Shown: positions 1 to 24,014 of the stretch, piece by piece | Layout of the letters: each line of letters starts with the position of its first letter | Numbering within the stretch: the first letter of the stretch is position 1 | Made by a program: the position numbers and the translations under genes | Notes under the pieces: model-generated | What the model was told of the DNA's origin: nothing | Seen by the model: the letters and a program-made list of their open reading frames with translations, nothing else | Databases searched by the model: none | Source of the DNA: Cyanophora paradoxa CCMP329 | Taxonomy: Eukaryota; Plantae; Glaucophyta | DNA: 25,205 nucleotides | Direction of reading: 5' to 3' | Assembly: GCA_004431415.1 (NCBI GenBank) | Contig: QPMI01000045.1 | Coordinates: 1-25,205, forward strand

Positions 1-5
1 ACGCC

Positions 6-401
6 ATGCGGTGCCCCAGGACCGTCGCAGAGGCCACCGACTGGGCGCCCGGGCTCGTCAACCGCCGCAGCGCCTTTCTGCTCATGGTCCGCAAAATCGC
101 CGGCTGGCACGGGGGCAGCGTCCGGTACGTGCCGAAGCCGCTGGACTACATCGACCGGCTCGCCGCCCGCATCGGACTCTCGGGCAAGGAGCGCGAGGCG
201 GCCCGCGAGCGCGCGAGGGCGCTCGCCGCGGCCGGCTCGGGCCGCTCGCCCGTCGTCCTCGCGGCGGCGGCCATCTGCGCCGCCACGGGCCTGCCCCACG
301 ACGCGGTGGCCGGCGCCGCGGGCATCACCGCCTGCGGGGTGCGCAAGGGGATGGCCGCCTTGCGCGCGCACCTGTCCAGTCCTCTTGTGGGCGCGAGCTA
401 G
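6..401 (+). CDS. TFIIB/TFB-like cyclin-fold protein, C-terminal part (probably truncated by the window start)
   Basis: The translation shows the TFIIB core-repeat pattern: CPRTVAE (end of repeat 1), PLDYIDRLAARIGL, GRSPVVLAAAAIC and the helix-turn-helix-like VAGAAGITACGVRK. Stop TAG at 399-401. The N-terminal Zn ribbon is not in the window. Confidence 0.75.
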   Translation: MRCPRTVAEATDWAPGLVNRRSAFLLMVRKIAGWHGGSVRYVPKPLDYIDRLAARIGLSGKEREAARERARALAAAGSGRSPVVLAAAAICAATGLPHDAVAGAAGITACGVRKGMAALRAHLSSPLVGAS

Positions 402-552
402 AACGATTCCGAAGACTCGAATTTGCGCGTGAATTTCGCGTCTTTGAAATTTCGCAAGCCTAGGGCCTGGGTCCAGGCCGGGTACGATTATAGCGCCGTT
501 GAGAGAGATCGCGAGCTCGAGGGAGATTCTGAGAGGCAGAGCCTGCAACGCG

Positions 553-558
553 TAAATA
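553..558 (+). promoter_or_regulatory. TAAATA (TATA-like) motif upstream of ATG 591
   Basis: AT hexamer in very GC-rich DNA, about 30 nt before the ATG. The same motif precedes four other genes. Confidence 0.5.
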
Positions 559-590
559 GAGCCCGGGGGGCCCCGCGCCGGCACGAGTAG

Positions 591-2873
591 ATGGCAGCGG
601 GAGACGCGGATGACGTTCCTGCCCCTTCGGGCTCGGGCCCGGGCGGCGGCACCCCGGCCGCGGGCGCCGGCGCCGGCGCCGACCTGGCGTCGGCGGCGGC
701 CCCTCCAGCTCCCGTCCGCCGCCCGAGCCCGAGTCCCGCCCCGGCCGCGTCGCCCTGCCGGCCTACTTTTCCGAGTGGCGGCACGAGATGATCAACTTTC
801 GCCACCAGTGCGCGCGCTGCGGCTGCCGGCAGCCCCTGCCGCCGCTGTTCCTCTACCCCTGCACGGTGGCCGCGCTGCTCGAGCGGACGGGCGCCAAGAC
901 TGTGAGCGAGGCGATCGACGCGCACCCGCGGGCGGCCGCCAACGTCTTTCGCGGCGGGCGCATCGCCTGCACCCCGTGCGCCCTCTCGCTCGCCTCGGGC
1001 GGGGCCTTTCCACAGGCCTCGGCCCCCGCGGGGCCCGAAGGCTTGAATCCCGACGGCGGGGCGTGCGGCGCGGCCGGCTGCGACCACGCCGCCCTCTCGC
1101 CCTGCAGCCGGCTCGACGCCTACGCCTCCTACCTGGGGTACATCGTCGAGGGAGGGGAACCGCGGGCGTGGACGGAGGGCGAGGCCTGCGGGCGCGCCCT
1201 CTTGGCGTCCGTGCACGAGGTCGGGGCGAGGCTGCGCCTCCCCGCTCCCGCCCCGCCGCCGGCCCCTCTGCCGCCTCTTCCGCCCCCCGACCCCCCCGCC
1301 GCGGCCGCCGGGGCCGCCGCCGGAGGAGAGCCGCAGACGGCCGCCGCCGCGGCGAGCTCGAGCTCGAGCGCTGCGGGAGGGGCGGCGCCCAAGGAGCCGC
1401 GATCGCCCGCGACCCGACGCAGGGGCGGCGGCGCGCGCGCTGGCGGCGGCTCGCGATCGGGCGGCCCGTCTCGATCGGGAGGGGGAGCGTCGTCCTCGCG
1501 CGCGGCGGCCACGGGCAAGCGGGCGGCGCGGGACGGGGAGCCCTCCGACCGCGAGAGCTCGAAAGAAGAGGAGGAAGAGCGGGACGAGCTCGCAGAAGAG
1601 GACGAAGCTGCGGCGGCCGCGGCCGGCGGCGCAAAGGCCAAGGGGCGCCCCCGGCGCCTCTGCACGACGGCCCCGGCCGGCGGCGAGGACGAGGAGGAGG
1701 AAGAGGCTCCGGAACAGTCCGACAAGGGCGCGGGGCCCAGCTCCAGGGCGAGGCGCAAGCGCTCCAAGTGGGCCGCAGCCGCAGACGACAGGCGCCCCTG
1801 GCGGAGCGACAAGCTCATCAAGGTGCGCCCAGCGAGATGGAGCTCAAATTAATTATAAGATTGAAAGCTGCGGCCCCCTTACCTCGCGCGCGCAGGTCCT
1901 GGTGGCGGCCTACGCCGTGCCGAGCGAAGAGGGAGACGAAGACGCCGAGGGGAGCTCCGGCGGCGGCGGCGGCGGCGGCGCGGCGGCGGCGGGCGGGGGC
2001 GAGGGCAGCGCCGCCGGCTCGCGGCGCGGAAGAGGACGACGAGGACGAGTGGGAGGCGGCCCAGCGCGAGCGGTGGGCCAAGTCGTTCGAGCGCCTGGTG
2101 AGGAGCTCGAGGCGACGGGACGGCGGGGGCAGCAAGGGCAAGCAGCCGGCCGAGGACGACGGCATCGACCGGGACGGATTCGAGGCGATCGTCATGGGGC
2201 TAGAGGGGGGCATCTCCCCTGAGCTGTCGGCTGAGGCTGGACGCCAGCGCCGAGGCGCGGCCGAGCTCCTGCGCTCCGCGACCGAGCGGGCGTGGGCGCC
2301 TGCGCCCTCTTGCTCATCGCCTGCGCCGTGCTGGCATCTACGAGCGCTTTGCGGCGCGCTTCAGCCGGAGCCGCCGCTCGTGGGATTCTTTCGCCAGGTG
2401 CACCAAATTTCCGCCCTTTAATTTTGTACAACTTCAAGAGGCGACGCGCGGCGCAGCTCAACGTCGACCGCGCTACGACGACGCCCTGCGCTGCTGCGGC
2501 TTCCGCACCGACGAGCCGACCTTCAGGCTCGCACCTACCTCGAGCTGCCCACCTCGCCTCGACCGTCCGGCGCTTCCCCGGCCTCGCGCGCGTGGCCGGC
2601 GCGGCGCACGCGCAGGACTTCGTCAACTTGTGCCGCTGCTGCCCGCGCGGACGAGCGCGGGCTGGAGGAGGTCTGGCAGCGGCTGGAGGACGAGCTGCCC
2701 GAGGGATGACGCTGCCGGACGACCTGCTGGCCGAGGCGGCCGACCGGGCGACGGCGGGCCTGGCTCGGACGGAGGCGAGGGCGGCGCCGGCTCGGACGGG
2801 AGGGCGCGTAGCGCCGCCCGGCCCGCGGCCGCGGCCGGGCGGGGCCGGGCCGGCCCCGGCCGGATCCCGATAA
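591..2873 (+). CDS. Hypothetical multi-exon protein with an N-terminal Cys/His-rich (putative Zn-binding) region and acidic low-complexity linkers; frameshifted
   Basis: ATG 591. A frameshift near 750 joins to ..AYFSEWRHEMINFRHQCARCGC..CTPC..CGAAGCDH... GT-AG intron 1823-1895 gives in-frame SDKLIK|VLVAAYAVP, and a second likely intron starts at 2398. Later globular-looking pieces are WEAAQRERWAKSFERL, QDFVNLC and LEEVWQRLEDELPEGMTLPDDLLAEAA. No family recognised. Confidence 0.55.
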
Positions 2874-2876
2874 ATA
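2871..2876 (+). promoter_or_regulatory. TAAATA motif upstream of ATG 2929
   Basis: GATAAATACGG, about 50 nt before the ATG. It overlaps the putative stop codon of the upstream gene. Confidence 0.45.
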
Positions 2877-2928
2877 CGGCGGGATCCCCCGCGGAGCGGC
2901 ACCGGAATCGAGAGCGGCCGACGTCACG

Positions 2929-3363
2929 ATGGGCCTGGAATCGATCGAGCTCGTCGACATCGCGATCTACCCCACCTCTGCGTTTCCGACGGCGAGGGAG
3001 GGCGTGCGCGTCAACACGTACCACGCGGTCAGGGACGCGCCTGGACGTGAGCATGACGCCGCACGGGCTGCGCGCCTCGACCTGCGTGCGCGAGGACGCC
3101 ATCCCGATCCTGCGCAAGCACGAGCGCAAGGGCTACGCGCGGCTCACGGCGTACGTCGAGGACGAGGGTGGCGTCGCCGTCACGCACATCGTACTCGCCC
3201 GCGACGAGCGCGAGGTCGCGCCGCCCAAGCCCGCGCGGCCGCCGGCGGCGTCGCCGCCCCCGGCAAGAAGGCCGCCGGCCCCAAGATCAAGGCCGAGAAG
3301 CCCAAGCCCAAGGGGAGGCGGGCGAGGAGGGCTCGGACGAGTGATCCTTTTGGAGTCTGTTAG
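2929..3363 (+). CDS. Small protein, possibly HIRAN-like domain plus basic tail; frameshifted
   Basis: MGLESIELVDIAIYPTSAF..YHAVR / GTRLDVSMTPHGLRASTCVREDAIPILRKHERKGYARLTAYVEDEGGVAVTHIVL, then a Lys-rich tail (GKKAAGPKIKAEKPKPKGRR). The VREDAIPIL..G.ARLTAYV segment resembles the C-terminal half of HIRAN, but the NxxDxxA motif is absent. Confidence 0.45.
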   Translation: MGLESIELVDIAIYPTSAFPTAREGVRVNTYHAVRDAPGREHDAARAARLDLRARGRHPDPAQARAQGLRAAHGVRRGRGWRRRHAHRTRPRRARGRAAQARAAAGGVAAPGKKAAGPKIKAEKPKPKGRRARRARTSDPFGVC

Positions 3364-3929
3364 CTACAGCTCGAACGCCGTTGCAGATAGGACCGCCGAC
3401 TCGTTCTGCGCAAGAGTTTGCGTATTGCAGTGCCCTCTAGATCTGGTATGAGAGCGCGGGCGCCGGCGGGCCGGGGCGGTGGGCTAGAGCGCGCGCCGAT
3501 ATCGCGATCGATCCGCCTGCGCTCAGCGGCTGGCAGCGGCGCCGCTCGCCGGCCGCTTCCTGCCGAATCCCTCTATACCACCTTTAGCTCTCGAAAGCGA
3601 GCCGTGCGCGGGCCCGAGGCGCCAGCCGGCGCCGCGGCGACGCGCGCGCGCGCGCGGCGCGTGCGTGCTCCCGGCGGGCCGTGCCGGGACGTCTCGGTGC
3701 ACCAAGAGTCGTTTCCAAACACAATAGAGCAAATCGCGCCGAGCGAGCGCGTCGCCGCGCGTCGGTTGCGGGAATCCAGTCGTTGGCATGCCAACGACTG
3801 AAACGACCCCCCCTCCCGGGGGGGAGGAAAAGGGGGGGAGAAAGCGGGGGGTACACCCGCCGATGGGCGCCGTCCGCTCCGCCCCGGTCCCTCAGACGCC
3901 CGTGCGCTGGCGATCCCGGTGCTCGGCGG

Positions 3930-4756
3930 CTAGGACGAGTCGCCCGCGTCGTCTGCCTCGCCCGCGCGGCCTGCGCCGCCGCCCTCTTCCTCCGCGTCCA
4001 CCTGAATCGGTGCGCCCGCGTTCGAGTGCTCCCTGGCGAGCCGTCGCATGACTGCCAGCTTGCGCTTCGCCCCGCCGCCGCCGTCCTTGACGCCCCGCTC
4101 AAAGGCGCGGGACGCGGCGATGCCGGGAAAGCCGTGGGCGATGGCGTAGGCCTTCCACGGGCCCTTGTTCTTCGTGTACGAGAACTTGCTCCCGCGGTTG
4201 TGCTCCCGCAGCCTGCGATCCGCCTGCGATCAGCGCGGCGCCGGGCGCGCCCGCGTGCGGCTGCGGGCTGGGCTCGCGCGCGGCGCGGCGCGCGGGGCGC
4301 CGGCGGCGGCGCTCGGCACGCTCGGCGCGCTCGGCGCGCGGCTCGGCGGGGGCGCTCACCGGCGGGCCATGTCCGAGGTGCTGCCGACGTAGCACACGTT
4401 GTCCGGGTTCGTGATGAGGTAGACGACGGGGCGCTTCGGGTGGCGCAGGTGCAGCGGCTTGGCCTTGCCGTCCGCCGTCTTGCTGCCGGCGTCCGCCTTG
4501 GGCTTGGCTCCCGCCGCCCTGACCTTGCCGCCCCCGCCGCCCCGCCCCCGCCCGCCGCCCGCCGCCTCGCCCGCCGCCGCGGCCCGGGCTGACCGGCTCC
4601 GTCCGCAGCGTCGTCGGTAGAGGCGCTCTGCGAGGCCGGCTCGGCGGCCGTGGTGCCATCGCCGTGGATCGACTCGCTCGGGGCTCCTTCTCCATGGTCT
4701 CTTCGCCCCGCGCGCCGGCGGGGGCCGCTCCGCTGCGAGCTCCACGGACCCGCCAT
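3930..4756 (-). CDS. SLX1-type GIY-YIG structure-specific endonuclease (2 exons, intron 4213-4359)
   Basis: Splicing CG|gtgagc...cgcag|G gives VVYLITNPDNVCYVGSTSDMARRLREHNRGSKFSYTKNKGPWKAYAIAHGFPGIAASRAFE. This matches the SLX1 pattern Y..YVG.T....RRL.QHN...T....PW......GF......FE with Tyr, Tyr, Arg and Glu intact. Stop TAG at 3932-3930. The low-complexity N-terminus has a frameshift, so the start at 4756 is approximate. No C-terminal RING. Confidence 0.85.
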
Positions 4757-4809
4757 CCCCCCTCTTGAGATCCCGCGAGTCCGCTTGCCCCGCCCCGCCC
4801 CGCGCGTCT

Positions 4810-5071: not shown

Positions 5072-8000
5072 CTACCCGCCTGGCAGGGCCGCGCTCGTGA
5101 CGGTGTGCGGCAGGGAGGCGGGGCGGCGCGCCTCTCGCGCTTTGCGGGGGCCCCGCGGGGGCAGGACGATGGGTACCGGGCGGCTCGCGCCCGGCGGCGG
5201 CTTGGCGGTCACCTCTGGCGGCACGCGGGGGCGCGGCGTCGGGCGCGGGTCGGCCGTCGGCGTCCATGGTTGGCGGGCGGCGGGGCGGCGGCGTCGTCGG
5301 AGGACGAGGGGCTCGGGCGCTCCGTATTATGCGTCCCGTGCCGCCGCCGCCGCCTCCGCCTCCTCCGCCTCCTCCGCCGCCTCCGGCGCTCACGCCCCGC
5401 GCTGGGTTCTTCGGGGGCGGCCGCGGCGGCGCCCGTGTAGCTCCCGCGCCCGCCGGGGCCGGCTCGGCCGCGGGGCTCCTGGCGGCCGCGGCGAGGCGCC
5501 GCAGGACCTCCTCGGCCGTCGTCGTCACGTCGACCGCGCCGCCCGTCGCGCGGTACTCCACCTCCACGGCCGCCCTCGGGTACGAGTAGTCGTCCGGCCC
5601 GCCTCGTTCGACGGCGTCCAGAGCGCGCCGAACCGCCGCAGGATGACAAAGCGGTTCTCCTGCTGCCGGAGGCGAGGCCCACCGTCGCCGTCAGCCGCGC
5701 AAAGACCGTCGACGGTAGGAGTCCCGCGCCGCGTCGCCATCGCCGCCACGACCGTCCGCGCAGGCATCGGGCTCGGCGTGATCAGCGGATGTGCCAGGGC
5801 GCCGGCGGCGGCGGCATCTCCCCTCGCGCCCCTCGCGGCGCCCGCCCGGGAGGAGCGACTCCCGCGCGGCCGCCGCGCCCCCGCTTCGGCGCGGCGGCCA
5901 CCTCCTCCGGCGCCGCCGCCTCCACCGCCTCTGCCGCCGGAGCGGCCGCCGGCGCGGCACCGGCACCGCCGCGGGCGGCGCTCCCTCGGCGTGAGCTGCA
6001 GCGCCCTGCGGAGCGCCTTCCGGGGCGGGTCGCACGGCGGCCGCCGCCGCTGCCCTCTGCCTCCTCCACCTCCTCCCTGTCGCTCCGGCCGCGCGCCGCC
6101 GGCTTGCGCGGGGAGCGGTGCCGCTCCTTGCCCTCGTCGTCCCGAAGATGCGGCAGCACTCGGGCACCAGCGCCCCTCGGCCCGGGCCAGCTCGCGCTCG
6201 ACGCGCATGCCCTCTTTCGGCTCGTCCGAGCTCTCGTCCGAGCTCCCGCCGTCCTCGCCTTCGTCGGACCCGCCGCCGCCGCCGCCGCCGCCAGGGGCGC
6301 CGCCGCGCGCCTCGCCCGCGGCGTCCTGGTCCTCGCCTCCCGACTCGCTCCCTTTCTCGTCCTCCGTCCCCTCCTCCTCCTCCTCCTCCTCCTCCTCCTC
6401 CTCATCGTCGGTCCCGGCGCGCTCCGCCCGCTTGGCTCCCTCCAGGGCCGCCGCCCCGCCCCTCCAGCGCCCGGATCGACGGTCCCTCGTGCTCGGCGGC
6501 GGCGCGCTCCAGCCACGCCAGCGCGGCGCACGCCTGCGCGGCGGCGCGTCGGAGGCGCGCGGGGCGCAGCGCGCAGCGACGGGGCGGGCGGGGCGCGGGC
6601 GGCGCACCTCGCGCTGCGTCCTGTGGCAGTCGTAGTGCATCGTGGCGGTCTTCGGCGTGTGCTGGAGGAGCCGCGCCGTCCCCTCGATCACGCTGGTGGC
6701 GACGTCCCCCTCGATCCGCCCTTGGCCGCCTGATCGCGCACCCAGGTCGTCACCACGGCGCGCATCGTCCTCGGCGGGACCGGCACGCCCGTCCAGCGGC
6801 AAAAGGCCTGCGCCCCCGCCGCCCCACCGGTTCGCCTCGCGCCCTCCCCGACCCGCGCCGCCTCACCTCCTTGGCAAACGCCGTCCAGGAGCCGCGGCGA
6901 AAGGGCTCGCCGGCCGACGTGAAGAAGATGTACCCCTGGTCCTTGGCGCCCTCCCGGAGCAGGTGCCGGCGGTAGTTTTCCACGTACTCGGTCAGCGGTT
7001 CCTGACGCGCCGCGCGGCAGGTCTTTCTGCGGACGCGGGCGGGGGGCGGCGGGGCGGGCGCGGGGCGCACCTGGAGCTGCTCGGCCACCGGCACGACCAC
7101 GGCCCCGTGCCGCTTCTGCGGGCCCATCGCCGGCGCGGGGGGCGCGGGGGTACCCCCTCTTCGCGCGCACCGCCGTCTTGTGGTGAGGGCCCCTCGCTCG
7201 GCCCGTCCTGGATCCGCATGCTCAGGATCGACATGTTCCACCGACCGTTGTCCTTGCGCAGGGTGTCGCCGATCTTCAGGTGCTGGAGGAGGCCCGGCCG
7301 CGCCGGGCTGATCGAGAGGAAGCCGAGGAGAAGGCAGTCCCGCAGGTGCTTTGCCTTTTGCCGCGGCTTCTCCTCGGCGTCGAACGCCTCGTAGGCGTCG
7401 GCCCGCCCCGGAGGACGCGCTCGAACTCGACGCAGTTCGTCCGCTGCCGCCACTTCTTCTCCGTCTTGGACTCGGCGAGGAGCTGGTTCTGCGCGGTGCG
7501 CGGTGCGCGTCGGACCCGGCGCAGCGAGCCGGGAGCGGGCGGGCGGATCGGCTCACCCGCAGGTTCCGCAGGCCTGCCCGTGGGCCCGTCGCTTCCGGCA
7601 GAGGCGCCGCCCCTCACGGCGACAAAGGCGGCGAGATTGATCAGGGTCGAGGCATAGCTGACGAGCGTGCCGGCTTCGTCCCGCGCTCCTCCCGCAGGAA
7701 CCTGCGGCCCGGCCGGCGGTGGGCGCGCCCCCGTGCCCCGCGCCGCGCCCGCGCCCCGCCCGCAGCCCCGCCCCGCCCCGCCTCACCTGAAGAAGCGCAG
7801 GACGATCTCCACGGCGTCGAGGCGGCCCATCACGTCGAGGGTGAGCTCGCCCTCCAGCCCCTCGCGCATGCGGACGTAGCCCAGCAGCCGCTGAATGATG
7901 CCCAGGTCGTTCTGGAGGCTCGAGTTTTCGATGGCGTTGCCCTTGCGCGAGGCGTTGAGCGGAGCCTGCCTCCACTCGCGGTACGCCGCCATCTGGTGCC

Positions 8001-10309: not shown

Positions 10310-10379
10310 CCGTCGCCCGCCGCGCCGGGCGCGGCCGTCTCGTTCTCGCTCGGGAGATCGGGGGCGGGTGATCGTGGTG

Positions 10380-10540: not shown

Positions 10541-10770
10541 CTGCCTCCCATCATTCCCTTGCATTCCTCTCTTCATTCCATTTCTAAATGTATGAGAGAG
10601 TAAGGAGCATTCCGTGCGTTCCCGGCGTTCCGTCCCTCTTGTCCTCCGGCGGACAGCGAAGAGCATCCACGGGCGCCGGCGGCGTGTGAGATTTAATGCT
10701 GCGGCACGGGCCGGGGGCCGGGGCCAGAAGTAGGTCTGGAACGCTGGAACGCGGAACGCGGCAGGGGTAC
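10541..10770 (+). repeat. ~230 bp repeat family, copy A
   Basis: Core CATTCCCTTGCATTCCTCTCTTCATTCCATTTCTAAATGT ... GGTCTGGAACGCTGGAACGCGGAACGCGGCAGGGGTAC. Confidence 0.9.
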
Positions 10771-10907
10771 GGGCGAGAGAAGCCCTAGGCCTACCGCTGA
10801 AAGCGCCGGCGGAGCGTGTTGCATTTTAGCACGTCTTCACCGTTTTTACAATGTGCACTTATATAATTAAGCTTCAGTACCCGCGGTCGAAGTCCACGCC
10901 ACTGCAG

Positions 10908-11132
10908 CTGCCTCTCATCATTCCCTTTGCATTCCTCTCTTCATTCCATTTCTAAATGTATTAGAAAGTATGGAGCGTTCCGTGCATTCCAGCGTTCCGC
11001 CCCCCTTGCCTCCCGGCGGCCCCGCAAGTGCACTCACAGGCGCCGGCGGCGTCGATTTTTGTGTGCGGCGACGCAGGGCCGGGGCGGGAGGTAGGTCTGG
11101 AACGCCGGAATGTGGAACGCGGCAGGGGGTAC
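10908..11132 (+). repeat. ~230 bp repeat family, copy B (tandem with A)
   Basis: Same core and the same GGAACGC...GGGGTAC end, about 365 nt after copy A. Confidence 0.9.
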
Positions 11133-11655
11133 AGCGCTCACAACCCGGCGCCCACCTCAACACGGGGGGTACAGGCCCAGAAGCTGACTCGAGCTCAGTG
11201 ATGAATCTTAGCCCGCCACCATGATCAAGAAGATCGATATTGGACTGACTTCAGCTACAAGAGTTGAGCTATATCTAATTAGTACTTGCGATCGATATGT
11301 ACGAGTATACGTGCCACCTAACTTATATATACTTTATGATTATATATACTATGATACTCATGATCATGATCATGATCACTGACATCTTAGCTTCGAGAAT
11401 ACATGACACGAAAGCTTCGAATTCTCTTTTTTCAAGCGTCACGATCAAGGTTTTAATTTGGCTTGTTATATATAAGATTATAAGATCGCGATATCATACA
11501 TAGAAGCGATTAAATATCTAAATCTAGACCTGTATACGTATATATACGTACATGCGCATGCCGCAGTGCGTACATGTTCCGGTTCATGATCAATTACATA
11601 ATTGTTTATGATCATGAACGTGAAAAAGGGTTGAGAGGTCATGCCATGATCATAA

Positions 11656-12105
11656 TCACTGAGTCAGCGGCCTCTTACGCTTACCCGGACTGTAGCTTTT
11701 CGGTAGAGTCGACTTTCTTACTTTCGAAGTTCCCGACGCCGAGGACTCTGCGCTTGCCAGATCCCATGCGCCGACGATAGCGGATACGGGGGCCCTTGCT
11801 GCAAGGCGACCGCTGCACGCGAGAAGGTTCGGGGCCCCGAGATAATCGGCGAATACGGCAACCTTGGCCAGCGCCACGAGCTTTGCTAGAGAGTCGTCTG
11901 CTGTATCTGAAGGCTCGAATAATGACGCTGTGGGAGGGGCTCGAAGGGCGAAGAAGGCACTCCGTAGCGTCTCCGAAGTAAATGGAAGCGGCACGGGAGA
12001 AGTGTCGGCGTCACTGCAAGCTTGCGCATCCTGCAGGACGCTGCTGTCGGCGAGGAGAGCGGGATCGCAATCAAAGACTTCGCCGTCGACGCTGACAAGC
12101 AGCAT
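11656..12105 (-). CDS. Skp1/BTB-POZ-like protein (intronless, 149 aa)
   Basis: MLLVSVDGEVFDCDPALLADSSVLQD..PVPLPFTSETL..VAVFADYLGAPNLL matches the Skp1 pattern L.S.DGE.F.V......S..L....P.PLP...S..L...A.YL....LL. The C-terminal F-box-binding helices look diverged, and the protein ends in a basic KRKRP. Confidence 0.75.
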   Translation of the reverse strand: MLLVSVDGEVFDCDPALLADSSVLQDAQACSDADTSPVPLPFTSETLRSAFFALRAPPTASLFEPSDTADDSLAKLVALAKVAVFADYLGAPNLLACSGRLAARAPVSAIVGAWDLASAESSASGTSKVRKSTLPKSYSPGKRKRPLTQ

Positions 12106-13506: not shown

Positions 13507-16149
13507 TTAAGGTGCGTTTGGAGAGGCGCCCTCGGAGTTGACCTTGAGGTTGTTCCCCAGCGTCAGCACGATGCAGTATCTGCCGGAAAGAGAAGGCTCG
13601 GAGTGAGCTTGAGAGGCGCCGCTGCGGCGGCCGCGGGAGGGCCCGGCGCACCGCCCCTCCGTGTCGTCGTCCTCCACCACGCCGTGCTTCAGATAGTGGC
13701 CCTGCCGCGAGAGGCGACGCGTCGGCCGCCGTCGCCCCGCCGGGCGAAGCCAGAGGCGCGGCCAAGCGTGCATGCGCACCTTGATAAAGACGACGTCGCC
13801 GTGGCGGAGCTCGACGGAGATGCCGAGGGCGGGGAAGCGGAGGCGGTGCAGGCGCCGGTCGCGGTCGCCGTCGGGGTGGAAATAGATGAGGGCCGCGTAC
13901 CCCTCTCGCGCATCGTTCACGTCGCGGTGCGGATCCGTGATCCTGCACCGGGGGAAAACGTCGGCCGCTCGCGGGCCGGCCGGGGCGGCCGGACGGGGGG
14001 TACGGCGGGCGGGGGAGGTGGCGGGGGTGGCTCACTTGTCCGGCCCGTTCATCCACTGCATCGCCCAGAAACCTGTACACGCAGGGATGATGGGAGCCCG
14101 GCCGCGCCCCCGGCCCCGCCACCCCCGAGGGCGGCCCGGCGGCGCACCGTAGTTGTACGGCTGCTGCTCGAGCAGCCGCAAGCTGATCTGGGCCATCTGG
14201 CAGGCGGCCCTCAGGTTGACGATGCTGAAGGCCGCGATGAGGTACTCCAGCAGCCCCGCGAGGTACCAGTTGAAGAGGTGCAGGCGCCGGTTCGCGTTCG
14301 TATCCGGCCCGAACTGCTTGTTGATGACCACCTGAGGCGGGCGTGAGCGCGGGCGCTCTGGCGCGCGGGGGGAGGCGGTCGGGAATCGCGGCGGGCAGCG
14401 GGCGGGCGCACCGGCGTCGGGACCGTGGCGCTAAGGCGCTGGCAGCCCGTGGTGACCCGATCGCCGCGCACCCCCTCCTGCTCCTCCGTGCCGCACCCGT
14501 GCCCCCCCTTCTTCTTCTTCTTCGTCTTCTTCTTCTTCGGCTTGGGCTCCGGCTTCTCTTCGGCCTGCGCGAGCCAGCCCTCGCGCTCGAGCTCCGCCAG
14601 CTTGGCTCGCATGACGTCGAGGCTGCCCGTCTCCAGCGCCGCCTTGGCGCCTCGTCGGCCGCGTCCAGCAGCGCCTGATCCTGCGCGTCCCGCCCATCAG
14701 CATCGCGACCGCCCGGCGGCGGGGACCGCGGGGTGGCGGCCGGGCAGAGGCGGGGAGGGGAGCGCGGGGGGCGGCGCACCAGCTCGGCGTTGTCGTGCGG
14801 CTTCCCCTTGGAAGCAAAGGGCATCGCCACCGAGCCGCAGGCGACGACGGCCGCGACGCGCTTGATTGCGGCGCCCTCCGCGTCCCAGAAGAGGTCGGGC
14901 AGGTGGGCGGCGGCCAGCTCGCCGCCGAGGACGAGGCGCGTGAACGTCCCGCGCCCCATCACCGCGTCGTGCTTCCGCACCTCCCTTCCCGGCAGGCCGG
15001 GCGGGAGGGGCTTCAGGCCGTGGCAGAGGGCGCCCTGCGCGCCGGGGGCTCGGCGGGGGCGCGCGTGGGGCGCGCCGGGGGCGTGCGGAGGGGCGGGCGG
15101 GCGGACCTGGGCCCGCAGGACCTCTTGGATGAAGCGCGTGTCCACCTCGCCGCCGCCGGGGAGGTTGCAGCTGAGCACGAGCGTCTGCGGGGGCGACACG
15201 GCGCGCTTCGCCACCGCGACGGCGTGCAGGGGCCCGTGGGGTCGTCGAGAAAGGCCCCCTGCAGGGCGCGCAGGGTCCACTCGGCGACGGGGCGCGGCTC
15301 GAGCCTCTTCCCCGACCGCAGCCGCAGCTCGGAGCCGTAGAGCTCGGCCTCGCGCGCCGGGGGCCCGAGCATCCCCGGAGGTACGATCCCGCGAGGCAGC
15401 TGCGGAGGGGGAGGCGCGTTCGGGCCGGGGCGGCAGCGGGCGGGCGAGAGGGGGCGTCTCGCACGTAGATCGTCTTGCCGGCCCAGCGGTGGGCCCCGAA
15501 GGACGGGAGCCCGTAGGTGTACCGCGCCAGGAGCGCGGCCTTGGCGAACGGATCTGCGGCAGGGCGTCGGGCGGGCAGCGGCGCTGCGAGCGCGGGGCGA
15601 GGAGGGGCGGGCGGACTCTTTGTGCGGAGGGGCACGCCGGGCCGGGAGCGCGTTGGACGCGCGCCTCTGCCCGCCGACCGCCAGCCCCGCCGCGCGCTTC
15701 TCGTTGCGCTTCCTCAAGGCCTCGGCGCGCCGAGCCGCCGCCGCCGGTCGGCCGCGAGCGCCTCTGCCGCGGCGGCGCACAGGGCCGCGTCGTCCGCGCC
15801 GTCCGCCGACGCGGCGGCGGCCCCGGGCGGCTCCCGCGGCGGCTCCTGCTGCAGACGCTCGCCCCTGCGCGGGCGGACGCGCCGCGGGCCTCCTCCGCTT
15901 CCGCCCGGCCCGGCCGACCGCCGGGGCCGGGCCTGCGCAGGCGCCGGACCGCTCCGGTTCCCCGACCAGGGCCGCCTGTGCGTTCTCGCGCCTCCGCTTG
16001 TGCGTGGCCTGCGCTGCAATGCCGCGGTGCCTGGCGGCCGCCTTCCTCGCCGCCTTGGTAGCCTTGGCCAGCTCCGTCAGCGGGATCAACTCCAGCCCCG
16101 CGCGCGCAAGCATGCCGCCGCGCGAGCTGCCGGGCCCGCCGTCCGGCAT
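13507..16149 (-). CDS. TET/JBP-family-like 2OG-Fe(II) dioxygenase, multi-exon, long N-terminal extension; frameshifted
   Basis: The spliced C-terminus reads NGPDK|ITDPHRDVNDAREGYAALIYFHPD..LRFPALGISVELRHGDVVFIK|GHYLKHGVVEDDDTEG|RYCIVLTL. It has HxD (13921-13929), distal His (13684-13686) and the 2OG-binding Arg, plus the TET/JBP-like HxDxxD, L.FP.LG..V.L..GDV and HGV signature. The start is uncertain, with possible further exons up to about 16700. Confidence 0.75.
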
Positions 16150-16941: not shown

Positions 16942-17829
16942 TCACTCGTCCTCGCCGCGGATCTTGCGGCGGAGCTGCGATCGCCCGCCCCGCCGGTCAG
17001 AAGAGGACGGGGATCGAGCCCGCCGGCGGGGCAGAGGGGCGGGGGCACCTGGATATCCTGTGCGCGAAAGCGGCGGGCGCCGTCAGCCTCCGGCGCGTGC
17101 GAGGGCGAGCGCGGGGGAGGGGGCGTGCCTTGGTTGGATGGTCGTGCGGCCGCGGTGGATCGCCATGAGGTTGGCCCCCTCAAAGGTCTGGATGAGGTGC
17201 ATCTCGGCCGCCTCGCGCAGCGCCTCGATCGCCTCCTTCTGCCAGCGCAGGTCCTCGCAGGTGAAGCCGGCCTCGCGCCGGCGCTTGAACTCGTCCTGGG
17301 CCAGCTCCTTGACCTGCGGCCCGCGCGCCCCCGTCAGCCTCGTCCCCCCGCCCCGCCCCGCGCGGCCGCCCCGGGCGGACGCACCAGACGATCAAAGCGC
17401 GCGTAGGAGATGAGGGGATTAAACGTCTTCTGGTACTTGCGGATCTGAGGGAGAGCGGGGCCCGGTCAGGAACGAGGAGGAGAAGGGGACGGGGCGATGA
17501 CGGGGGCTCGTTTTGTTTAGAGAGAGGGCGGCGGGGCGGACCTCGCGGAGGCGACCGTCCCTGCCCCGGCCCAACGCGCGCGGCGCTCAGCCGCGGAGCC
17601 GGCGGGGCCCGGCGGGGATCGGGGCGGCGCACCGGGGCGGTACCTGCGGGCGCGCTGGGGTGAGGCGGGGAAGGAAGGGCCGGGGGCGCGCTCGCGCTCT
17701 CGAGGCGCACCTGTGCGGCCTCTTGACGCCCCGGCGGCGGGGCGCTCTTCCGCGCGGCCTTGGTGGCCAGGCACCTCCTCGGCGCCTTGCCCCGGTCGAC
17801 CTCTTTGCCGTCTGCTTCATGCGCGCCAT
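16942..17829 (-). CDS. H3: Divergent histone H3 variant, 7 exons, with several 1-nt frameshifts
   Basis: Exons 17829-17711, 17643-17633, 17560-17542, 17444-17385, 17313-17129, 17057-17049 and 16974-16942 give MARMKQTAKRSTG(G)KAPRRCLATKAARKSAPP..GVKRPHR|YRPG|TVA(L)RE|IRKYQKTFNPLISYARFDRL|VKELAQDEFKRRREAGFTCEDLRWQKEAIEALREAAEMHLIQTFEGANLMAIHRGRTTIQ(P)K|DIQ|LRRKIRGEDE*. Confidence 0.92.
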
Positions 17830-17920: not shown

Positions 17921-19861
17921 AGCGTCGGCCGGCGAGGGAAAAGGAGGGGAGGGGATTGCGCGAAGCAACTCACCGGGAGCGGCGGCGGGGAGACGGATTC
18001 GGGGTAGAAAAGAAGGCGCGGGGTGCCGAGGGCGGGCCCCGGGCGGCCCACCGGGACGGGGCGGGAGGGGGCGGCGGCGGCGAGAACGGCGCGGGGCGCC
18101 CCGGCGACCCGACCCTCGAGTCCTCCGAGCGATCGCCCCCTCTTGCGAGCGTTGGATCGACAGAGGGCGGCGGGGCGGGTGAGGGAAATCAAACAATCCG
18201 CCCTAGCGGCCCGCGGGCGCACCGGCAGACGGTGGGACCCCGTCCGATCGATCGGGCTCGTCTTTTCGGTTCGTTTAAAAAAAAGCCCGGGCCGAATTAG
18301 TGTCCTAGGGGGGGGGGTACGTGCCACACCGGCGCCGTACCTCACCTTTAGCTCGCGACCTCATGGAGCTCTAACCCGACCAAATCGACCCCGGGGAATC
18401 GAATGGCGGGGTCGGCGGGGGGCGTAGAGGGGGTACTGGAGCGCCAGGGAGGGGTCGGGGTTTTGATGGCGGCGCAACCTGGCAAAGCCCGGTGAATAGC
18501 AGCCGATGGGTGCTAGTAAACGATCGGGCGGGTTTGGGCTCACTCCGCCGCTCCGGCGACGCGCGAGATGCGTTCGAACGACGCCGGGTCGCTGCCGCGC
18601 GGCTCCTGCCGGCCGAAGGGCGCCCAGAGGCCATCTGCGCACCCTACGATCGTACTGGGAGCGTTTGCCCGCGCGGGCGGGCGGGAGCTCGGTGCGTTTG
18701 CGGGACGCGCCGTCGGCCACGCGGCGGCTCGCGAGCGAGCGCGGACCGATCGGGCGTGTAGCGAGCACCGCAAAGGCCAGCAAACACGTTTCCCGGCCGC
18801 CAGGCGTGCGACGCGACGACCATTTGCCGATGTCTGCGGAGTCCAGCGCAGGCCGAGCCCACGGTCAGCTTTTCATCGATCAAAGAGTGCGAGCTGCGCA
18901 CCTGTGACGTCCTATGGCGGCGGGCTGCAGGATCAGGGATGCCGGTCGGTCGCGCGAGGGTACTCTTATTTCACTGGGGTACGCGTATCGCGGGCCAGTT
19001 TGCAGCAGCAGCCGTATGTGTGCAGTTTACATAAACGAGAACATGTGAGACGGGCGGCTGGGCGCCACGTCGCACCTTTCCTCGAGATTCAGGTGCTTCG
19101 GATCTCGTTCGATTTCCGCCCCCGCCGTCGCCAATTGAGCGCTTGACCTTGCGCAGGCGCAGTGCCCGGGCCGGCGCCGGCGGAGCCCGCGGAGCCGAGC
19201 GCACGGGTGCACGTGCGGCCGGCATCGGAGATCAGATTTCTGCGCGCGATCCGCGTCCGTCCCGCGGCGCGTGCCGGGGAGCTCGATCCGAGGTGCCGTG
19301 CCCGAGCTCGAGCGTGGGCGCCTGCACCTCCAGCCTCAGCTCGCAGCACGCAGCCGCAACGTGCGCGCCGCAGCTCGCACCGGCGTGGGCCGGCGTGCGC
19401 GCCAGCACGAGGCGCCACCCCCCGATCTCTCCATTCGCGTCGGTTTGGAGGAACAGGCTAGGTGCGCAGCTGCAGGCCGCCGATGCGCACCGGCCGCGTC
19501 GTCGAGGCAGAGTAGAGGGCCGGGCGGGGGCGGGCGTGCGTCGCGTTGCGCCGCTGCGTTAGCTGCCTCGTCCCGTGCACGCCAAAAAACTCTGATGCGG
19601 TGTCTGCTTCGCAGGTTTCCTCCGGTGGGGGGCGGACGGCACGCCAGCAGTATTAGAGGCGCAGCGGACCGAGTCTCTTCTCTCGCGCTCGTTGCTGCTC
19701 AGGTACGCGCCGCTGTTATTCGATCGTCCGGCGGCGTGCCCCCGCCCCCCTCTAGAACTCCACCCGGGCCCCGACCGCTGCCCCTGTACCGTTTATCGTT
19801 ATCGATTTATTTTCTTGTCCTTTGAGCTACGTGTGCATCGTAGCTGCTTTCAATTTACCCC

Positions 19862-20091
19862 GTACCCCAAGCCGCGTTCCGCATTCCAGCGTTCCAGACC
19901 TGCCCTCGCCCCCGGCCCTGCGCCGCTGCACCGAATTGAACTCGATTCCGCCGAGGCCGTGGGTGCGCTCGCCGGGGCGCCGGGATCAGAAGGGGGGCGG
20001 AACGCTGGAATGCACGGAACGCTCCTTACTCTCTCATACATTTAGAATTGGAATGAAGAGAGGAATGCAAGGGAATGCGGGCCGCGGGTAC
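19862..20091 (-). repeat. ~230 bp repeat family, copy C (inverted relative to A/B)
   Basis: GTACCCCAAGCCGCGTTCCGCATTCCAGCGTTCCAGACC ... ACATTTAGAATTGGAATGAAGAGAGGAATGCAAGGGAATG...GGGTAC. Confidence 0.9.
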
Positions 20092-20215
20092 AAGATCGCC
20101 TCCCCATCTACCTGTCTCTCTAGCCCCTCTGGTGAGTTCCTTTTTCAGGCGCTAGATTCGATGAGAGGCCCGGGGTCGGTACCCCCTCCTCTCCTCTACC
20201 CCGAAGCAACGCCAT

Positions 20216-20442
20216 GTACCCCAACCGCGTTCCGCATTCCAGCGTTCCAGACCCTCCTCCCGCCCCCGGCCCCGCGCCATTGCACGCAACCTCAACGCCG
20301 CCGGCGCCCATGGGTGTGCTCGCCGGGCCGCCGGGAGCCAAGGGGGGCGGAACGCTGGAACGCACGGAATTCTCCATACTTTCTAACACATTTAGAATTG
20401 GAATGAAGAGAGGAATGCAAGGGAATGCGGGCTGCGGGGTAC
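20216..20442 (-). repeat. ~230 bp repeat family, copy D (tandem with C)
   Basis: Same as copy C, about 350 nt later. Similarity with C continues about 35 nt past the GTAC (CAAGA..CTACCTGTC..CTCTAGC). Confidence 0.9.
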
Positions 20443-20728
20443 AAGAGCCCCCTACGCTACCTGTCCTATCCCTCTAGCTACAAAGCGAAAACGAAAGTGA
20501 TCCAACCTACACCTGCTCTAGAGTCGCTAGAGTAAACCCGACCCGGTACGCCTTCCGCCCCCGAGCGGGGCGGCGGCAGTCACGCGGCAACAGCATCCTC
20601 GTCCTCGATCTCGAGGCGACCGCCCCCGCGCCGCCCAACAACTCCAACCGCTCGCCGACGGCCGGCTCGAGCCCTCGCTCCGTTGCCGCTTGAGCGTCGG
20701 CGAGCCGTCCCTGTGCGCCGAGCGGTGG

Positions 20729-22553
20729 TTAGCAGGAGGCGCGTCGGAGCGACGGGAACGTTAACATGGTGCACCGCTTGGTCTGCTCTCCTTCCCCGCC
20801 CCGCCCGCAACCCCGCACCCGACCTGCCGGCGCCGCCCGGTGAGCCCCGTGCGCGGCCTCGCTCGTTGGTGGGGCGGGCGAGGCTTTTGCGGGGGCAGGA
20901 GCGGAAGCGCACCAGAGCGCGCGGAGGTCGGCGTCGGACATCTCGAGCCACCGCTTCGCCCCCGACTGCCGCTTCCTGGCCGACGCGTGAGGCCGAGACG
21001 GGGCCCACCGCCCGCGGGGCGGGCGGCCGGGTGGGCGCTCACGGGTCCGGCGGGGCCAGCCGAGGCGGCGGGCGACGAGACGGCCAGGGCGCAGACGGCG
21101 TCGCGGTCCATTGACGCCAGCGTCGCCGCCGGCGCCTCGCCGGGCAGGTGGCGCAGGGCGTAGCCTCGAAGGTCGTCCGTGTTGCGCTTGAAAAAGGTCC
21201 TGGAGGCAAACGCCCGCTTCCTGCACGCGGGCGGCCGTCGGAAGGGCGAGAGAGCCGCGCGGCCGCGCGCACGCGGGGGGAGGAGGGACGCACGCCAGCT
21301 GGACGTCGACGACCGTCCCCTCGTCGCCCTCGGCGGACCTGCACAAAAACTCCAGGGCGTCGGCGGGCGCCGCGCTGCCGCCCGAAGAGCGCGCGGGGCG
21401 GAGGCGCACATTTCGAGAAAGAGCGCCGGGTTCGGATCGCTGCCCCGCACGCCGTCAGCCAGCGGCCACCGGGCGCGCGCCCGCGCCGCGGGCCCGGGGG
21501 CGCGCGCACCAGTGGGAGACGTCGAGTTCGCGCTCCCTGCAGAGGCGCGCGGCGAGGGTGCGGAGGGAGGCGAGGTCGCGCAGCCCCGCCGCCTGCTCCT
21601 CGGCGCCGAGCGAGGCCAGGAGCCTCAGCAGCCGCGAGCAATCCCGAAAGGCGTCGCTCCTGACGGCCGCCGGCCGCGCGCTGCGAGGCGGGCCGGTTGG
21701 GCCGATCGGCCGGGCGCCGGGCGCTCCTCGGCGGGATGCGGGCCGCACCTGGGACCGGAGAGGGACGTGGACGGCTCGGCGTCCGCGGGGGCGGCGAGGT
21801 GGCAGGCGGCCCGATGCCGCCGGCCGGCGGGCGCGGCGTCCACGCGTCGGGCTCGAGGATGTGGCGCACGGCCGCGCGCTCGATCGTCCGGGCCGTGCGG
21901 AAGATCCGGTCCATCGAGAGGCAGCGCTGCAGGAGCGCCGCCTCCGTGAAGACGTGCTTCCTGGAGGCGCACGCGGGGCACCACACGCCCGGCGGCGCGA
22001 GCGCCAGCTCGCCGATGCCGGCGACCAGCGCCGTCCCGCGCGCATCTCGGCGAGCGCCCGCAGCACGGCCGGCACCAGCAGGGCGCGGCAGGCTGCGCGG
22101 ACGCGCGGCGCCCGGCCCGGGCGGCACGCGTCAGCGGCGCCACCGAGAACGAGCGCGCGGCAGGAGATCTAGAGGCGCGGGGTCGGGCGCGACGCGGCGC
22201 ACCGAGGTCAAGGGCCGACTCCAGGACGACGGCACACGCGGCGCGTTGGCGGGCAGCGAGCCCGTCGCCGCGCTCCTGCCGCATCGGAGGTCGATCACAG
22301 CACGCCGGGCAATCGCTCCGACTCGCGGTTTGCGCACCGAGCCCGCGCCGACCATAGCTGCGATCCATTGGACGGAGCGGGCGTGCGCCTCGATCACCCG
22401 GTCGCCGTCCGAGGCTTCCTCGACGGATTCCAGCCCGAGGAGGGCCACGGGGTCGCCCAGCCCCGGGCCCCAGCAGTTGGCCGGGGGCACATCAATTACC
22501 CTTAAAAAAGCTTTTTTTGCCACAGTAGGGACACGCATCTTGGCAAGCAGCAC
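20729..22553 (-). CDS. Hypothetical multi-exon protein, frameshifted
   Basis: Protein-like blocks (..AFLRVIDVPPANCWGPGLGDPVALLGLES.., VWCPACASRKHVFTEAALLQRCLSMDRIFR, AFRDCSRLLRLLASL, FFKRNTDDLRGYALRHL, KRWLEMSDADLRAL) are separated by GTGCGC/GTGAGC...CTGAC...CAG introns. The ends are approximate and no family was recognised. Confidence 0.5.
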
Positions 22554-24014
22554 CCGCTCGGCCTCCGGACGTGAGCGCCGGCGCGATCATCTCCCTAGCC
22601 CTCCAGCGTTGCTAAACGAACCGTGCGCTTCGCTGCGCCAGGTCCTTCGTCGCCAACGCACAGGCATCGCGCCCGCATCGGGCGGGCGTTGCGCACCCGC
22701 GCGGGGCGGGCCGCACCAACCTCTCCGATTTCGGTCGGTCACAGCGAAAAGCACGTGCGTCGTGCGCCAGCCCCAGGCGCCGGCCCCGGACCACCACTCG
22801 CAAGCTGACGATAGGCGGCGATCGGGCGGCAGAGTCGAGGCAGCGAGTCGAAGCACCCGTATCGGCTGCAGGACCATCGTGCTCGACCGCCTGCCGGTGC
22901 GCGGGCCCCGCGCCGCGCTCTTGCCCGACCGGGCGGCCGCCGCGGCGCCGGCGCGCGGGGGGCGTGCTTCCGCGCGCTGCGGCGGCGCGGATCCGGATCG
23001 GCGATCGTGCCCTTATGAACGCGCTCTCAGGTCTGCGCTGCCGCAGGCAGGCCGCCGCCGGTCCAGCGGGCGCTTTGCCGTCCGACGAGCTCGAGGTGCG
23101 TGCGGACACGAGCCGCGAGCCTAGAGGGCGCTAGCGCTAGCCGTGGCTGCAGGGCCGGCGCCCGCGGCCACCCTATCTGGCCGCTTCGTGCACTAACGCA
23201 GACCTCGGGAAAGACAGGCCCGGCGGCGCGGATCCTGGGGGGGGGTACGCGTGCACACCGCGAATCCAATCCTAGCTCGACCTAGCTCAATTGCTGTGCA
23301 GCTTCGCTGAGGTGCATACATACATCTATGCAAATACACATATATACATATCACGATTTCTTCGTCGAATGAAATTAACCTCGCATTATCTGATCTCAGT
23401 GGAGCCGCTGATCATGAGCGGAAATTCGGTCACGGAGTCAGCTCGGCCAACTTTTTCACGATGAAGAAAGCAGATATCGACATGTACGCATCTTCAGAGT
23501 TAGAGTCGGAGATGGGTTGCAACTCGTAATTGGAGAAGAGTCCCACTCGATCCGTTTGTGAGTGCATTCGTTTCGATTTCCACATTTCAGTTCCATGTCT
23601 CTAGCCGTAGCTAGATATAGATCTACCTAGACTAGTACTGTTCACCGGGATATAAGGCCGAACCACACCGTTTTTTTGTCACGTGCATGCATTTCCGGCC
23701 TGAATTCGTGCTCTTGTCGATAATTTTTATGATGTTAATGCATTTGACAAAATCCCACGAATCTCACTGCCCCTGATCTATTTTTTCAAAAAGGCGGTCA
23801 ACATCTGATCTAAATTTGCTCATAGCTCGCGATCGCATATATACGCGTACGCACACGTAAATATATAAAAAGGTACACGTTACGTAATAACTGACGGCCG
23901 GCGTCTTTTTTCACAGGAGCCGCCGTTCCAGCTTCGCAACTTCAGAGCCGGCTCCATCCCGCTGATCAAAAGTCGTTCACTGAAGAAGTTTCGTCGAATG
24001 CACCGCAGTCAAGC

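Follow-up and report, generated by a model that had tools for sequence, protein, structure and literature searches.

A putative Cyanophora family of large tyrosine-recombinase mobile elements with predicted anti-silencing cargo

Overview

The stretch of Cyanophora paradoxa nuclear DNA analysed here (the window; 25,205 nucleotides) is probably, at somewhat better than even odds (roughly 55%), a member of a family of large Cyanophora mobile elements whose movement would depend on their own tyrosine recombinase (YR) and which carry a predicted anti-silencing cargo. A sequence-only reading of this DNA had proposed a self-integrating element equipped to escape host silencing; the multiple copies of the TET and recombinase genes, their recurring linkage and a host that methylates its DNA bear this out in part, whereas neither an end of the element nor a target or empty site came to light.

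Organization and expression of the locus

The six genes that had been placed within about 18 kb all lie between positions 3 and 17829 and are real, the Skp1-like gene being the weakest call. They had been described as compact and are instead intron-rich, and comparison with short-read contigs identified the frameshifts in them as long-read deletion errors of the assembly. Only contigs that skip GT-AG introns were counted as RNA, the sequencing runs themselves carrying no RNA label, and by this measure spliced RNA was detected for the TET/JBP gene, the histone H3 variant and an orphan gene with a CxxC motif. An Rfam search of the window gave no match, and short Pfam matches to MLVIN_C and SDH_C were judged to be due to chance.

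At the left edge is the 3′ part of a TFIIB/TFB-like gene (3..401, plus strand), truncated by the window start, which comprises the second cyclin repeat (PF00382, E = 0.0027) and matches archaeal TFB in the PDB (1ais, E = 1.2e-4); a short-read contig extends 776 nt further left, beyond the window start. Two orphan genes, called from reading frames, follow on the same strand. The first (590..2709, start and exon borders approximate; TAAATA at 553) encodes a Cys-rich N-terminus, an acidic middle and a helical C-terminus without a match in Pfam or PHROG; a base-hypermodification helical domain had been seen in it by eye only, found no match and was dropped. The second (2929..3344; TAAATA at 2871) is small, has a basic tail and lacks a convincing family match. 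On the minus strand, a GIY-YIG nuclease gene (3930..4760, start approximate), supported by its reading frames, matches PF01541 on both exons (E = 4.8e-4 and 3.2e-4) and has a single intron within the catalytic domain; its motif suggests the SLX1 type.

To the right of the genes discussed below, a transcribed region with no recognizable coding family (18379..19941, plus strand as judged from one splice acceptor), delineated by RNA contig pieces and reading frames, ends at an inverted repeat arm. It is followed by the spliced CxxC orphan gene (20580..22538, minus strand; a 1454-nt RNA contig, five pieces listed), which on two further contigs has homologues upstream of TET (N-termini of P0004 and P0006), and by a low-GC stretch (23281..25205) with orphan ORFs and a spliced plus-strand transcript (23286-23534). 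The element end that had been placed at position 23280 proved to be merely a drop in GC content from 74.5% to 49.7%: a single 15.6-kb short-read contig crosses this position at even depth, joining the low-GC stretch to the CxxC orphan gene, and no boundary is demonstrated there.

A protease-tyrosine recombinase fusion

The gene on which mobility would depend (approximately 5390..10310, minus strand; gene model P0011, paralogues P0012 and P0013) encodes, in order, an N-terminal domain without assignment, a CE-clan (Ulp1/C48-like) protease (~9400-8550), the YR (~8040-6600), an acidic tail and a conserved C-terminal domain. Pfam gave no match for the fusion and no integrase family in any of the three proteins. 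PF11917 (DUF3435) was absent at E up to 0.5 from P0011 and P0012 and at E up to 1 from P0013, and neither GCR1_C nor a DUF3504-type YR was matched, in proteins where Pfam is also blind to every integrase family. A Bro-N domain in the N-terminus was seen by eye only, Pfam and PHROGs being negative, and was dropped. The R/K/RxxR/H/Y recombinase pattern is nevertheless kept in all three models, the position of the first His being variable, and the YR part of P0012 scored 0.96-0.97 in the ESM Atlas, where the named set is Phage_integrase on 15% of members. By its predicted sequence, the YR has intact catalytic residues and is a candidate mobilizing enzyme. None of the RNA pieces over its gene is spliced, and the piece at 6415-6694 reads through a predicted intron, so that expression of the YR gene is not counted as established.

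Five of the best seven PDB matches of a three-member profile of the fusion are CE-clan proteases (best E = 0.0065), and the best protease matches are ChlaDub2, a deubiquitinase/deneddylase, and XopD. The CE-clan triad His-Asp-Cys plus Gln (W..H..D..Q..C) is present in the window frames and in the alignment, from which the His is absent only where models skip that exon. The predicted substrate is SUMO or a related modifier such as ubiquitin or NEDD8.

The TET/JBP dioxygenase and its possible target

A multi-exon gene for a TET/JBP-family 2OG-Fe(II) dioxygenase (13507..16149, minus strand) is supported by its own model (P0001), PF12851 and spliced contigs. The family comprises 10 models on 10 contigs, 59-100% identical, all of which retain the HxD..H..R residues (iron ligands and 2-oxoglutarate Arg). 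PF12851 matches all eight aligned members, with a best E value of 2.2e-5 that falls under the curated 34.9-bit cut-off, and the ESM Atlas score is 0.94. The two best PDB sequence matches are both Naegleria Tet (E = 0.26 and 0.93), while the full-length family profile retrieved no relevant PDB chain. Two structure models were of low confidence (pLDDT 38.5 and 46.2) and returned nothing significant in Foldseek or VIA-align; Foldseek ranked 2OG-Fe(II) prolyl hydroxylases highest, though weakly (E = 0.03), and the VIA rows were generic helical hairpins. The predicted substrate may be 5-methylcytosine rather than thymine. Such an enzyme would have a plausible target, because the host silences repeats by CpG methylation, which stands at 32% and covers repeats as well as 5,406 genes, most of them silent (PMC12344493).

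The histone H3 variant

The neighbouring gene (16942..17829, minus strand; Pfam Histone, E = 2.4e-11, gene pieces read separately; spliced contig) encodes an H3 variant in which an H3-like tail is combined with a CenH3-like core. The tail is H3-like in length and has R in place of K9, with the K4, K27 and K36 contexts retained, and the core differs from solved H3 by F84W and T107A. Relative to canonical H3, loop 1 is presumably about 10 residues longer and Q68 is lost. A long divergent loop 1 distinguishes CenH3 histones (PMC2995078). By its sequence, the core of the variant is CenH3-like in its loop and substitutions, whereas the tail departs from that of CenH3, which is unlike the tail of canonical H3.

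Inverted arms

Self-BLAST and alignment revealed four repeat units of ~215 bp, two in a left arm of 593 bp (10541..11133, plus strand) and two in an inverted right arm of 607 bp (19859..20465, minus strand), which flank exactly the Skp1-like, TET and H3 genes. Within each unit, an AT-rich imperfect palindrome is accompanied by two triads of GGAAY boxes that oppose each other (7 matches to the box pattern versus 0.33 expected); the units are 79-85% identical end to end and up to 96% in a 71-bp core. The Skp1/BTB-like gene (11656..12105, minus strand) is an intronless ORF in low-GC DNA and a weak call (PF03931, E = 0.12), although all 12 of its PDB matches are Skp1 (best E = 0.53); no RNA piece among those listed falls on it.

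Since the arms enclose just these three genes, they could bound a non-autonomous TET/H3/Skp1 transposon nested in a separate YR element. A diverged copy that matches from the H3 upstream region through the right arm would fit such nesting, as would the terminal-repeat transposons of fungi that carry TET genes, as described in the available text of PMC12730594. Nesting is nevertheless the least probable of the readings considered: on other contigs TET is linked to genes from outside the arms, namely the orphan and the YR gene, no transposase is present between the arms, and the arms are tandem, diverged and without a flanking duplication in the alignment.

Alternatively, the arms could belong to a selfish replicon of the 2-micron type, in which the recombinase would flip the inter-arm segment and excise circles, the GGAAY boxes would act in replication origin or partitioning, and a segregation mark would come from the CenH3-like H3 together with the Skp1-like protein. 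Arms with box arrays, an H3 core with a long loop 1, W84 and A107, and a contig (P0010) on which the YR 5′ end lies head-to-head with TET, as inversion would yield, are all in its favour. According to the available portions of PMC6594588 and PMC2064333, the yeast plasmid likewise has a YR (Flp) beside long (599-bp) inverted repeats, SUMO-linked control of that YR and a centromeric-type H3 (Cse4); it borrows Cse4 and Ulp1 from its host, however, and has perfect repeats and a high copy number, whereas the Cyanophora unit encodes both an H3 and a protease itself, its arms have diverged and it is present in about two copies. The identity of the arm units is unlike that of an actively recombining pair, the depth (about twice single copy) indicates no amplification beyond perhaps rare circles, and no strand-changing joint at the repeats occurs among the joints listed (15 of 408; 15 of 39). 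With a replication gene absent from the window and the tail of the variant H3-like, this replicon is very unlikely. Decidedly unlikely, too, is a new class of capsid-less eukaryotic replicon that flips and excises at its own arms, has a private chromatin system and encodes what the yeast plasmid borrows. Its recombinase would remove its own SUMO brake, TET would erase host 5mC, the TFIIB would be its own, and segregation would be served by a centromere-type H3 that is blind at K9 and has a Skp1-like partner.

Copies and linkage

The TET and recombinase genes are not the single-copy, unlinked genes that the sequence-only reading had held would refute it. The search for copies that it had proposed yields TET models on 10 contigs and three protease-YR models. 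TET is also found repeatedly beside the H3 variant, the YR gene or the orphan: four of the seven more distant TET models have chimeric N-termini that reveal the neighbouring gene. P0005 joins TET to an end of the H3 variant (E = 3e-7), and P0010 joins it to the 5′ part of the YR gene in antisense (E = 1e-9); in P0004 and P0006 the neighbour is the orphan, matched in three collinear segments (E from 7e-4 to 7e-3). These five linkage scores, none reached in 30 shuffles, are read from mis-predicted chimeric gene models and not from DNA. From the other three distant models no linkage could be read, and two further YR-bearing contigs fall outside the 10 TET contigs. Contig depth, as per-contig means and not tool-given copy numbers, is 139-190 versus 78 for the diverged copy in run X9 and 118-149 versus 66 in X14. 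This fits two identical copies (P0001 and P0002, which do not differ in the catalytic domain) and one diverged copy, P0003, the residues of which agree with five of six amino-acid-changing variants tested.

The same data could be read as accessory gene families of the host that segmental duplication has dispersed, with the recombinase domesticated or a passive neighbour. The duplicated stretch of even depth spans at least 36 kb with no end seen, the genes have host-type introns and are expressed, and the identical pairs P0001/P0002 and P0007/P0010 could be segmental or assembly duplicates. Yet the same unrelated genes are linked in lineages merely 62-76% identical in TET, the searched proteins are all without relatives beyond this alga, and the recombinase catalytic residues are kept in every model, making such an origin highly improbable.

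Viral hallmarks and wider relatives

The sequence-only reading had suggested that viral hallmark genes would separate virus from transposon. Within the window, no capsid, packaging ATPase or PolB was found in 300 of 302 ORFs of at least 45 aa, nor a KDZ-type/DDE transposase or Helitron Rep/helicase among the 300, in a scan insensitive to split genes that also missed the YR, protease, TET and Skp1-like genes. Pattern scans of 2.9 million viral contigs (P0012 and the TET alignment), of metagenome contigs (YR and TET alignments) and of phage records, which need near-exact words and are weak, gave no relative.

GIY-YIG nucleases, Skp1-like proteins, CE-clan proteases and histones are typical gene types of large viruses, and the TFIIB is closest to archaeal TFB. 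The window could accordingly be part of an endogenous virus, either a giant-virus insert or a large polinton-like virus, with capsid and replication genes outside the window (at least 11.6 kb of contiguous flank lies beyond the sequence read) and accessory chromatin genes that gained host-like introns. Giant-virus inserts have been reported from C. paradoxa (PMC12344493), and polinton-like viruses commonly hold a YR integrase and GIY-YIG (PMC12220804), so that virus-type accessory genes of this sort have precedents in algal genomes. In contrast to these, the window has no detected capsid, packaging ATPase or PolB, and its genes are expressed, densely supplied with host-type introns and high in GC (75%); with no relative among the viral contigs or phage records, a viral origin is possible but unlikely.

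Comparison with known mobile elements

The oomycete Cryptons CryptonF-2_PS and CryptonS, in the accessible part of PMC3212892, are likewise YR-moved DNA transposons that encode a C48/Ulp1-type peptidase. Cryptons have 4-6 bp direct repeats at both termini, whereas terminal direct repeats were not found in the window, beyond which the ends may lie or within which they may go unrecognized; here, moreover, protease and YR are joined in one protein with extra domains, and the unit is tens of kb with TET, H3, TFIIB, GIY-YIG and Skp1-like cargo. Fungal TET/JBP transposons (Kyakuja, Dileera, Zisupton, hAT, EnSpm, Plavaka, Helitron; PMC12730594) similarly bring multi-copy TET/JBP genes on mobile DNA into a repeat-methylating host, and anti-silencing has been proposed for them. 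Their carriers are of DDE type or Helitrons, whereas the Cyanophora unit carries a YR; in the main text of that paper the terms 'tyrosine recombinase', 'Crypton' and 'algae' never occur, and its available part describes no histone variant cargo. Starships are also large, cargo-bearing, YR-moved eukaryotic elements, but as portrayed in the available text they have a DUF3435 captain as first gene at the 5′ end and a target site duplication and belong to Pezizomycotina (PMC9156397), while here no DUF3435 is found and the YR gene is flanked on both sides by candidate cargo, in a unit for which no end was detected. No description of this gene combination was found in the literature, with subscription papers mostly outside coverage.

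Proposed mechanism and significance

In the preferred reading, that of a YR-moved Cyanophora element, the recombinase would excise the unit and re-insert it, with the GIY-YIG nuclease resolving recombination intermediates. The TET/JBP enzyme would oxidize 5-methylcytosine placed on repeats by the host, nucleosomes with the K9R H3 would be unable to receive the K9 methyl mark, and the fused CE-clan protease would free the recombinase or nearby chromatin of SUMO or a related tag, while TFIIB would aid transcription from TAAATA-type promoters. TET looks like optional cargo, with the recombinase, nuclease, TFIIB and H3 as the core. Precedents exist, within the available text of each source, for TET capture by transposons (PMC12730594), for Ulp1 together with a YR in oomycete Cryptons (PMC3212892) and for SUMO control of the YR Flp (PMC6594588). 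Counting against this reading are the K27 and K4 kept in the H3 tail and the TET, protease and Skp1 calls, which lie below curated cut-offs.

The Cyanophora lineage is distant from fungi, and the repeat methylation of the host has already been mapped. To our knowledge, known anti-silencing transposons deploy one counter-measure each; the Cyanophora family appears to combine counter-measures to three layers, DNA methylation, H3K9 methylation and SUMO-type tags, on one YR unit. Because this kit occurs in a methylation-mapped host with existing EM-seq data, and some family members seem to have TET and others to lack it, the idea that a transposon-borne TET protects its carriers becomes directly testable. 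The family would also provide an H3K9R histone that occurs naturally, as well as a TET branch that diverges deeply.

Source of the DNA and quality of the assembly

Two proteins found by searching, tig00000179_g13065 for a protease-recombinase (P0011) and g13066 for a TET/JBP protein (P0001), are gene models of the window itself and identify it as nuclear DNA from the glaucophyte Cyanophora paradoxa. Coding regions of the window have a GC content of 73–75% and its introns are short and GC-rich; GC content is lower at 11134–13450 (55%) and 23281–25205 (50%). Within the latter stretch are three intronless low-GC ORFs of 125–144 aa (23895–25120) with no Pfam or PHROG match. The eight longest short-read contigs listed from run X1 show 0 to 3 letter differences from the window and otherwise gaps, those listed in coding DNA being restored single bases, and the window's many frameshifts are therefore assembly errors.

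Gene content

The six genes named in the sequence-only reading are all present, one of them weakly. A TFIIB repeat lies at 3–401 (Pfam E 0.0027; archaeal TFB E 1.2e-4) and a GIY-YIG gene, both exons of which match PF01541, at ∼3930–4760. The gene at ∼5390–10310 encodes a CE-clan protease (5/7 best PDB matches, top E 0.0065) fused to a tyrosine recombinase (YR), the latter part without a match in a Pfam search, carrying YR motifs and, in the paralogue P0012, scoring 0.96–0.97 in the ESM Atlas, where Phage_integrase is assigned to 15% of the members of the named cluster. By eye, the N-terminal domain of the fusion (9700–10310, minus strand), which is conserved in the paralogue P0013, resembles two Bro-N-type repeats, for which no Pfam or PHROGs match was found. 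A CxxC motif and a C-terminal domain beyond the acidic tail (5505–5783 and 6080–6220, minus strand) are kept in three of three or two of three fusion proteins. All 12 PDB matches of the gene at 11656–12105 are Skp1, but E values are only 0.12 (Pfam) and 0.53 (best in the PDB), and it is tentatively termed Skp1-like.

The TET/JBP gene (13507–16149) has an Atlas score of 0.94, and Naegleria Tet provides the top two of its three PDB matches (E 0.26 and 0.93). PF12851 matches all eight aligned family members (best 2.2e-5, below the cut-off), and the HxD..H..R motif is present in 10/10 TET models; two structure predictions of the protein yielded no usable fold. In P0003 (tig00001387_g8569), a diverged copy that also appears in RNA-run contigs, a Cys separates the His and Asp iron ligands. 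An 82-bp AT-rich direct repeat, 83% identical (13262–13340 and 13378–13456), lies within the TET 3′ untranslated region.

In the first exon of the H3 variant (16942–17829; Pfam Histone, E 2.4e-11), read ahead of any break, position 8 is K and position 9 is R, in place of the canonical R8-K9; the contexts of K4, K27, and K36 are retained. Relative to solved H3, its core carries F84 to W and T107 to A, both CenH3-type residues, and a longer loop 1. The core is thus CenH3-like, a longer loop 1 being among the CenH3 criteria in PMC2995078, and the tail is not.

Expression

Four runs were guessed, and none recorded, to be RNA, and transcript evidence consists of contigs that skip GT-AG introns. Such contigs join 13299–13579/13652–13700/13779–13942 and 15668–16168/16274–16487 in TET, 17132–17311/17383–17446 in H3, and 23286–23309/23398–23534 in the low-GC stretch. 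One 1454-nt contig maps in five pieces to an orphan CxxC-motif gene (20580–22538, minus strand), back to back with which a spliced plus-strand RNA piece (22534–22754) starts. Recombinase contig pieces are all unspliced and one spans a predicted intron; expression of this gene is therefore not established by the RNA contigs.

Copies and linkage

Neither the TET/JBP gene nor the recombinase is single-copy, in keeping with the mobile element first proposed. Searching models of at least 269 aa with TET gave 10 proteins, every one of them from Cyanophora and each on a contig of its own, 59–100% identical in the catalytic domain and including two identical pairs; the recombinase search, which covered models of 536–1707 aa, returned three. 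Depth of the window contigs is 139–190 in run X9 and 118–149 in X14, and that of the diverged copy 78 and 66, near the medians of listed unrelated partial contigs (79, n = 13; 59, n = 11). Among 12 sites tested over TET, X1 variants give the P0003 residue at five of the six that change an amino acid. Contig depth is no copy number, although a window depth about twice that of the diverged copy, in a host for which haploidy is reported to be the likelier state (PMC6704402), fits two identical copies and one diverged copy; a single window locus assembled twice is a possible alternative to the identical pair.

Linkage was assessed from chimeric gene models among the seven TET models more distant than P0003. 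The N-terminus of P0005 is the final part of an H3 variant that shares 60% identity with that of the window (E 3e-7), the N-terminus of P0010 is antisense to the 5′ part of the recombinase gene (68%, E 1e-9), and those of P0004 and P0006 are homologues of the orphan (E 7e-4 to 7e-3), which are the best two of 433 ORFs by profile and collinear in order. None of 30 shuffles equalled any of the five linkage scores. The N-termini of P0007 and P0008 did no better than chance, and P0009 lacks an extension. Conserved linkage of TET, to the H3 variant, the recombinase gene or the orphan, is thus found in four of the seven distant models. The two other recombinase contigs are absent from the 10 TET contigs, and TET therefore looks like optional cargo.

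Repeat arms and short motifs

The Skp1-like, TET, and H3 genes are enclosed by two arms, each a tandem pair of ∼215-bp units (left, 10541–11133; right, inverted, 19859–20465). The four units are 79–85% identical, reaching 96% in a 71-bp core, and each contains an imperfect palindrome rich in AT, together with GGAAY boxes arranged in opposed triads (seven matches versus 0.33 expected). Summed depth at the arm sites is 790–1420, which suggests few copies outside the element family. In P0010 the recombinase 5′ end points away from TET, the layout expected from inversion between the arms; no inversion joint at the arms was found among the joints listed. Informative sites that group units two by two (10552–10770 and its three sisters) form a mosaic, with three adjacent sites joining the left and right units L1 and R1, five L1 and R2, and four L1 and L2, a hint that the arms once exchanged sequence.

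TAAATA occurs seven times (0.66 expected), at 553, 2871, 4810(-), 10380(-), 17915(-), 11511, and 23858, five of them ∼30–90 nt ahead of predicted gene starts, and could be a host TATA box or serve the TFIIB of the element as a promoter. GGGGGTAC occurs 12 times (0.52 expected), chiefly in spacers and introns (3847, 4885, 7146–7157, 11125, 11165, 13996, 16510, 18313, 18429, 20179, and 23241), and could be a motif of the host or the element. A perfect 24-bp palindrome (3777–3800) separating two convergent genes is a possible recombinase site or terminator.

Ends and relation to known elements

The boundary earlier placed at 23280 is not supported, as a 15,632-nt contig runs from 20403 across this position to 10.8 kb beyond the window at even depth. 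Another contig extends 776 nt beyond the left edge of the window, and no element end was found within the window or on the short-read contigs running past it. Capsid, ATPase, PolB, and transposase families had no match in 300 of 302 window ORFs, which is weak evidence because the same scan missed four of six real genes.

The element would work like cargo-carrying YR transposons. It is probably not a Starship, since it has no match to the DUF3435 that defines these (PMC9156397). It could be a Crypton or a virus, assignments that turn on its ends. A plasmid-like nature, paralleled by the 2-micron plasmid (PMC2064333), seems improbable. Precedents exist for the uptake of TET genes by DDE-type and Helitron transposons in fungi (PMC12730594, the main text of which mentions no tyrosine recombinase, Crypton or algae), for pairing of an Ulp1-type peptidase with a YR in oomycete Cryptons (PMC3212892), and for control of the YR Flp by SUMO and Ulp1 (PMC6594588). 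A literature search found no account of the gene combination, which had been thought undescribed.

In C. paradoxa, which possesses DNMT1 and DNMT3, CpG methylation stands at 32%, repeats are methylated, 5,406 genes are methylated and mostly silent, and giant-virus inserts are present (PMC12344493). A mobile element in this genome would counter repeat silencing with its TET/JBP enzyme, K9-less H3, and recombinase-fused protease. Alternatively, the TET could act on thymine, and the protease substrate could be NEDD8 or ubiquitin; silencing through K27 could still occur. The multi-copy genes, recurring linkage, and K9-less H3 speak for the self-integrating anti-silencing element first proposed, but no end was found. 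The family appears to be real, low-copy, and expressed, of a YR-mobilized type. As the unit recurs with TET/JBP, an H3 without K9, and a recombinase-fused protease in a methylating host, it is most simply read as a mobile element that counters silencing through these putative activities.
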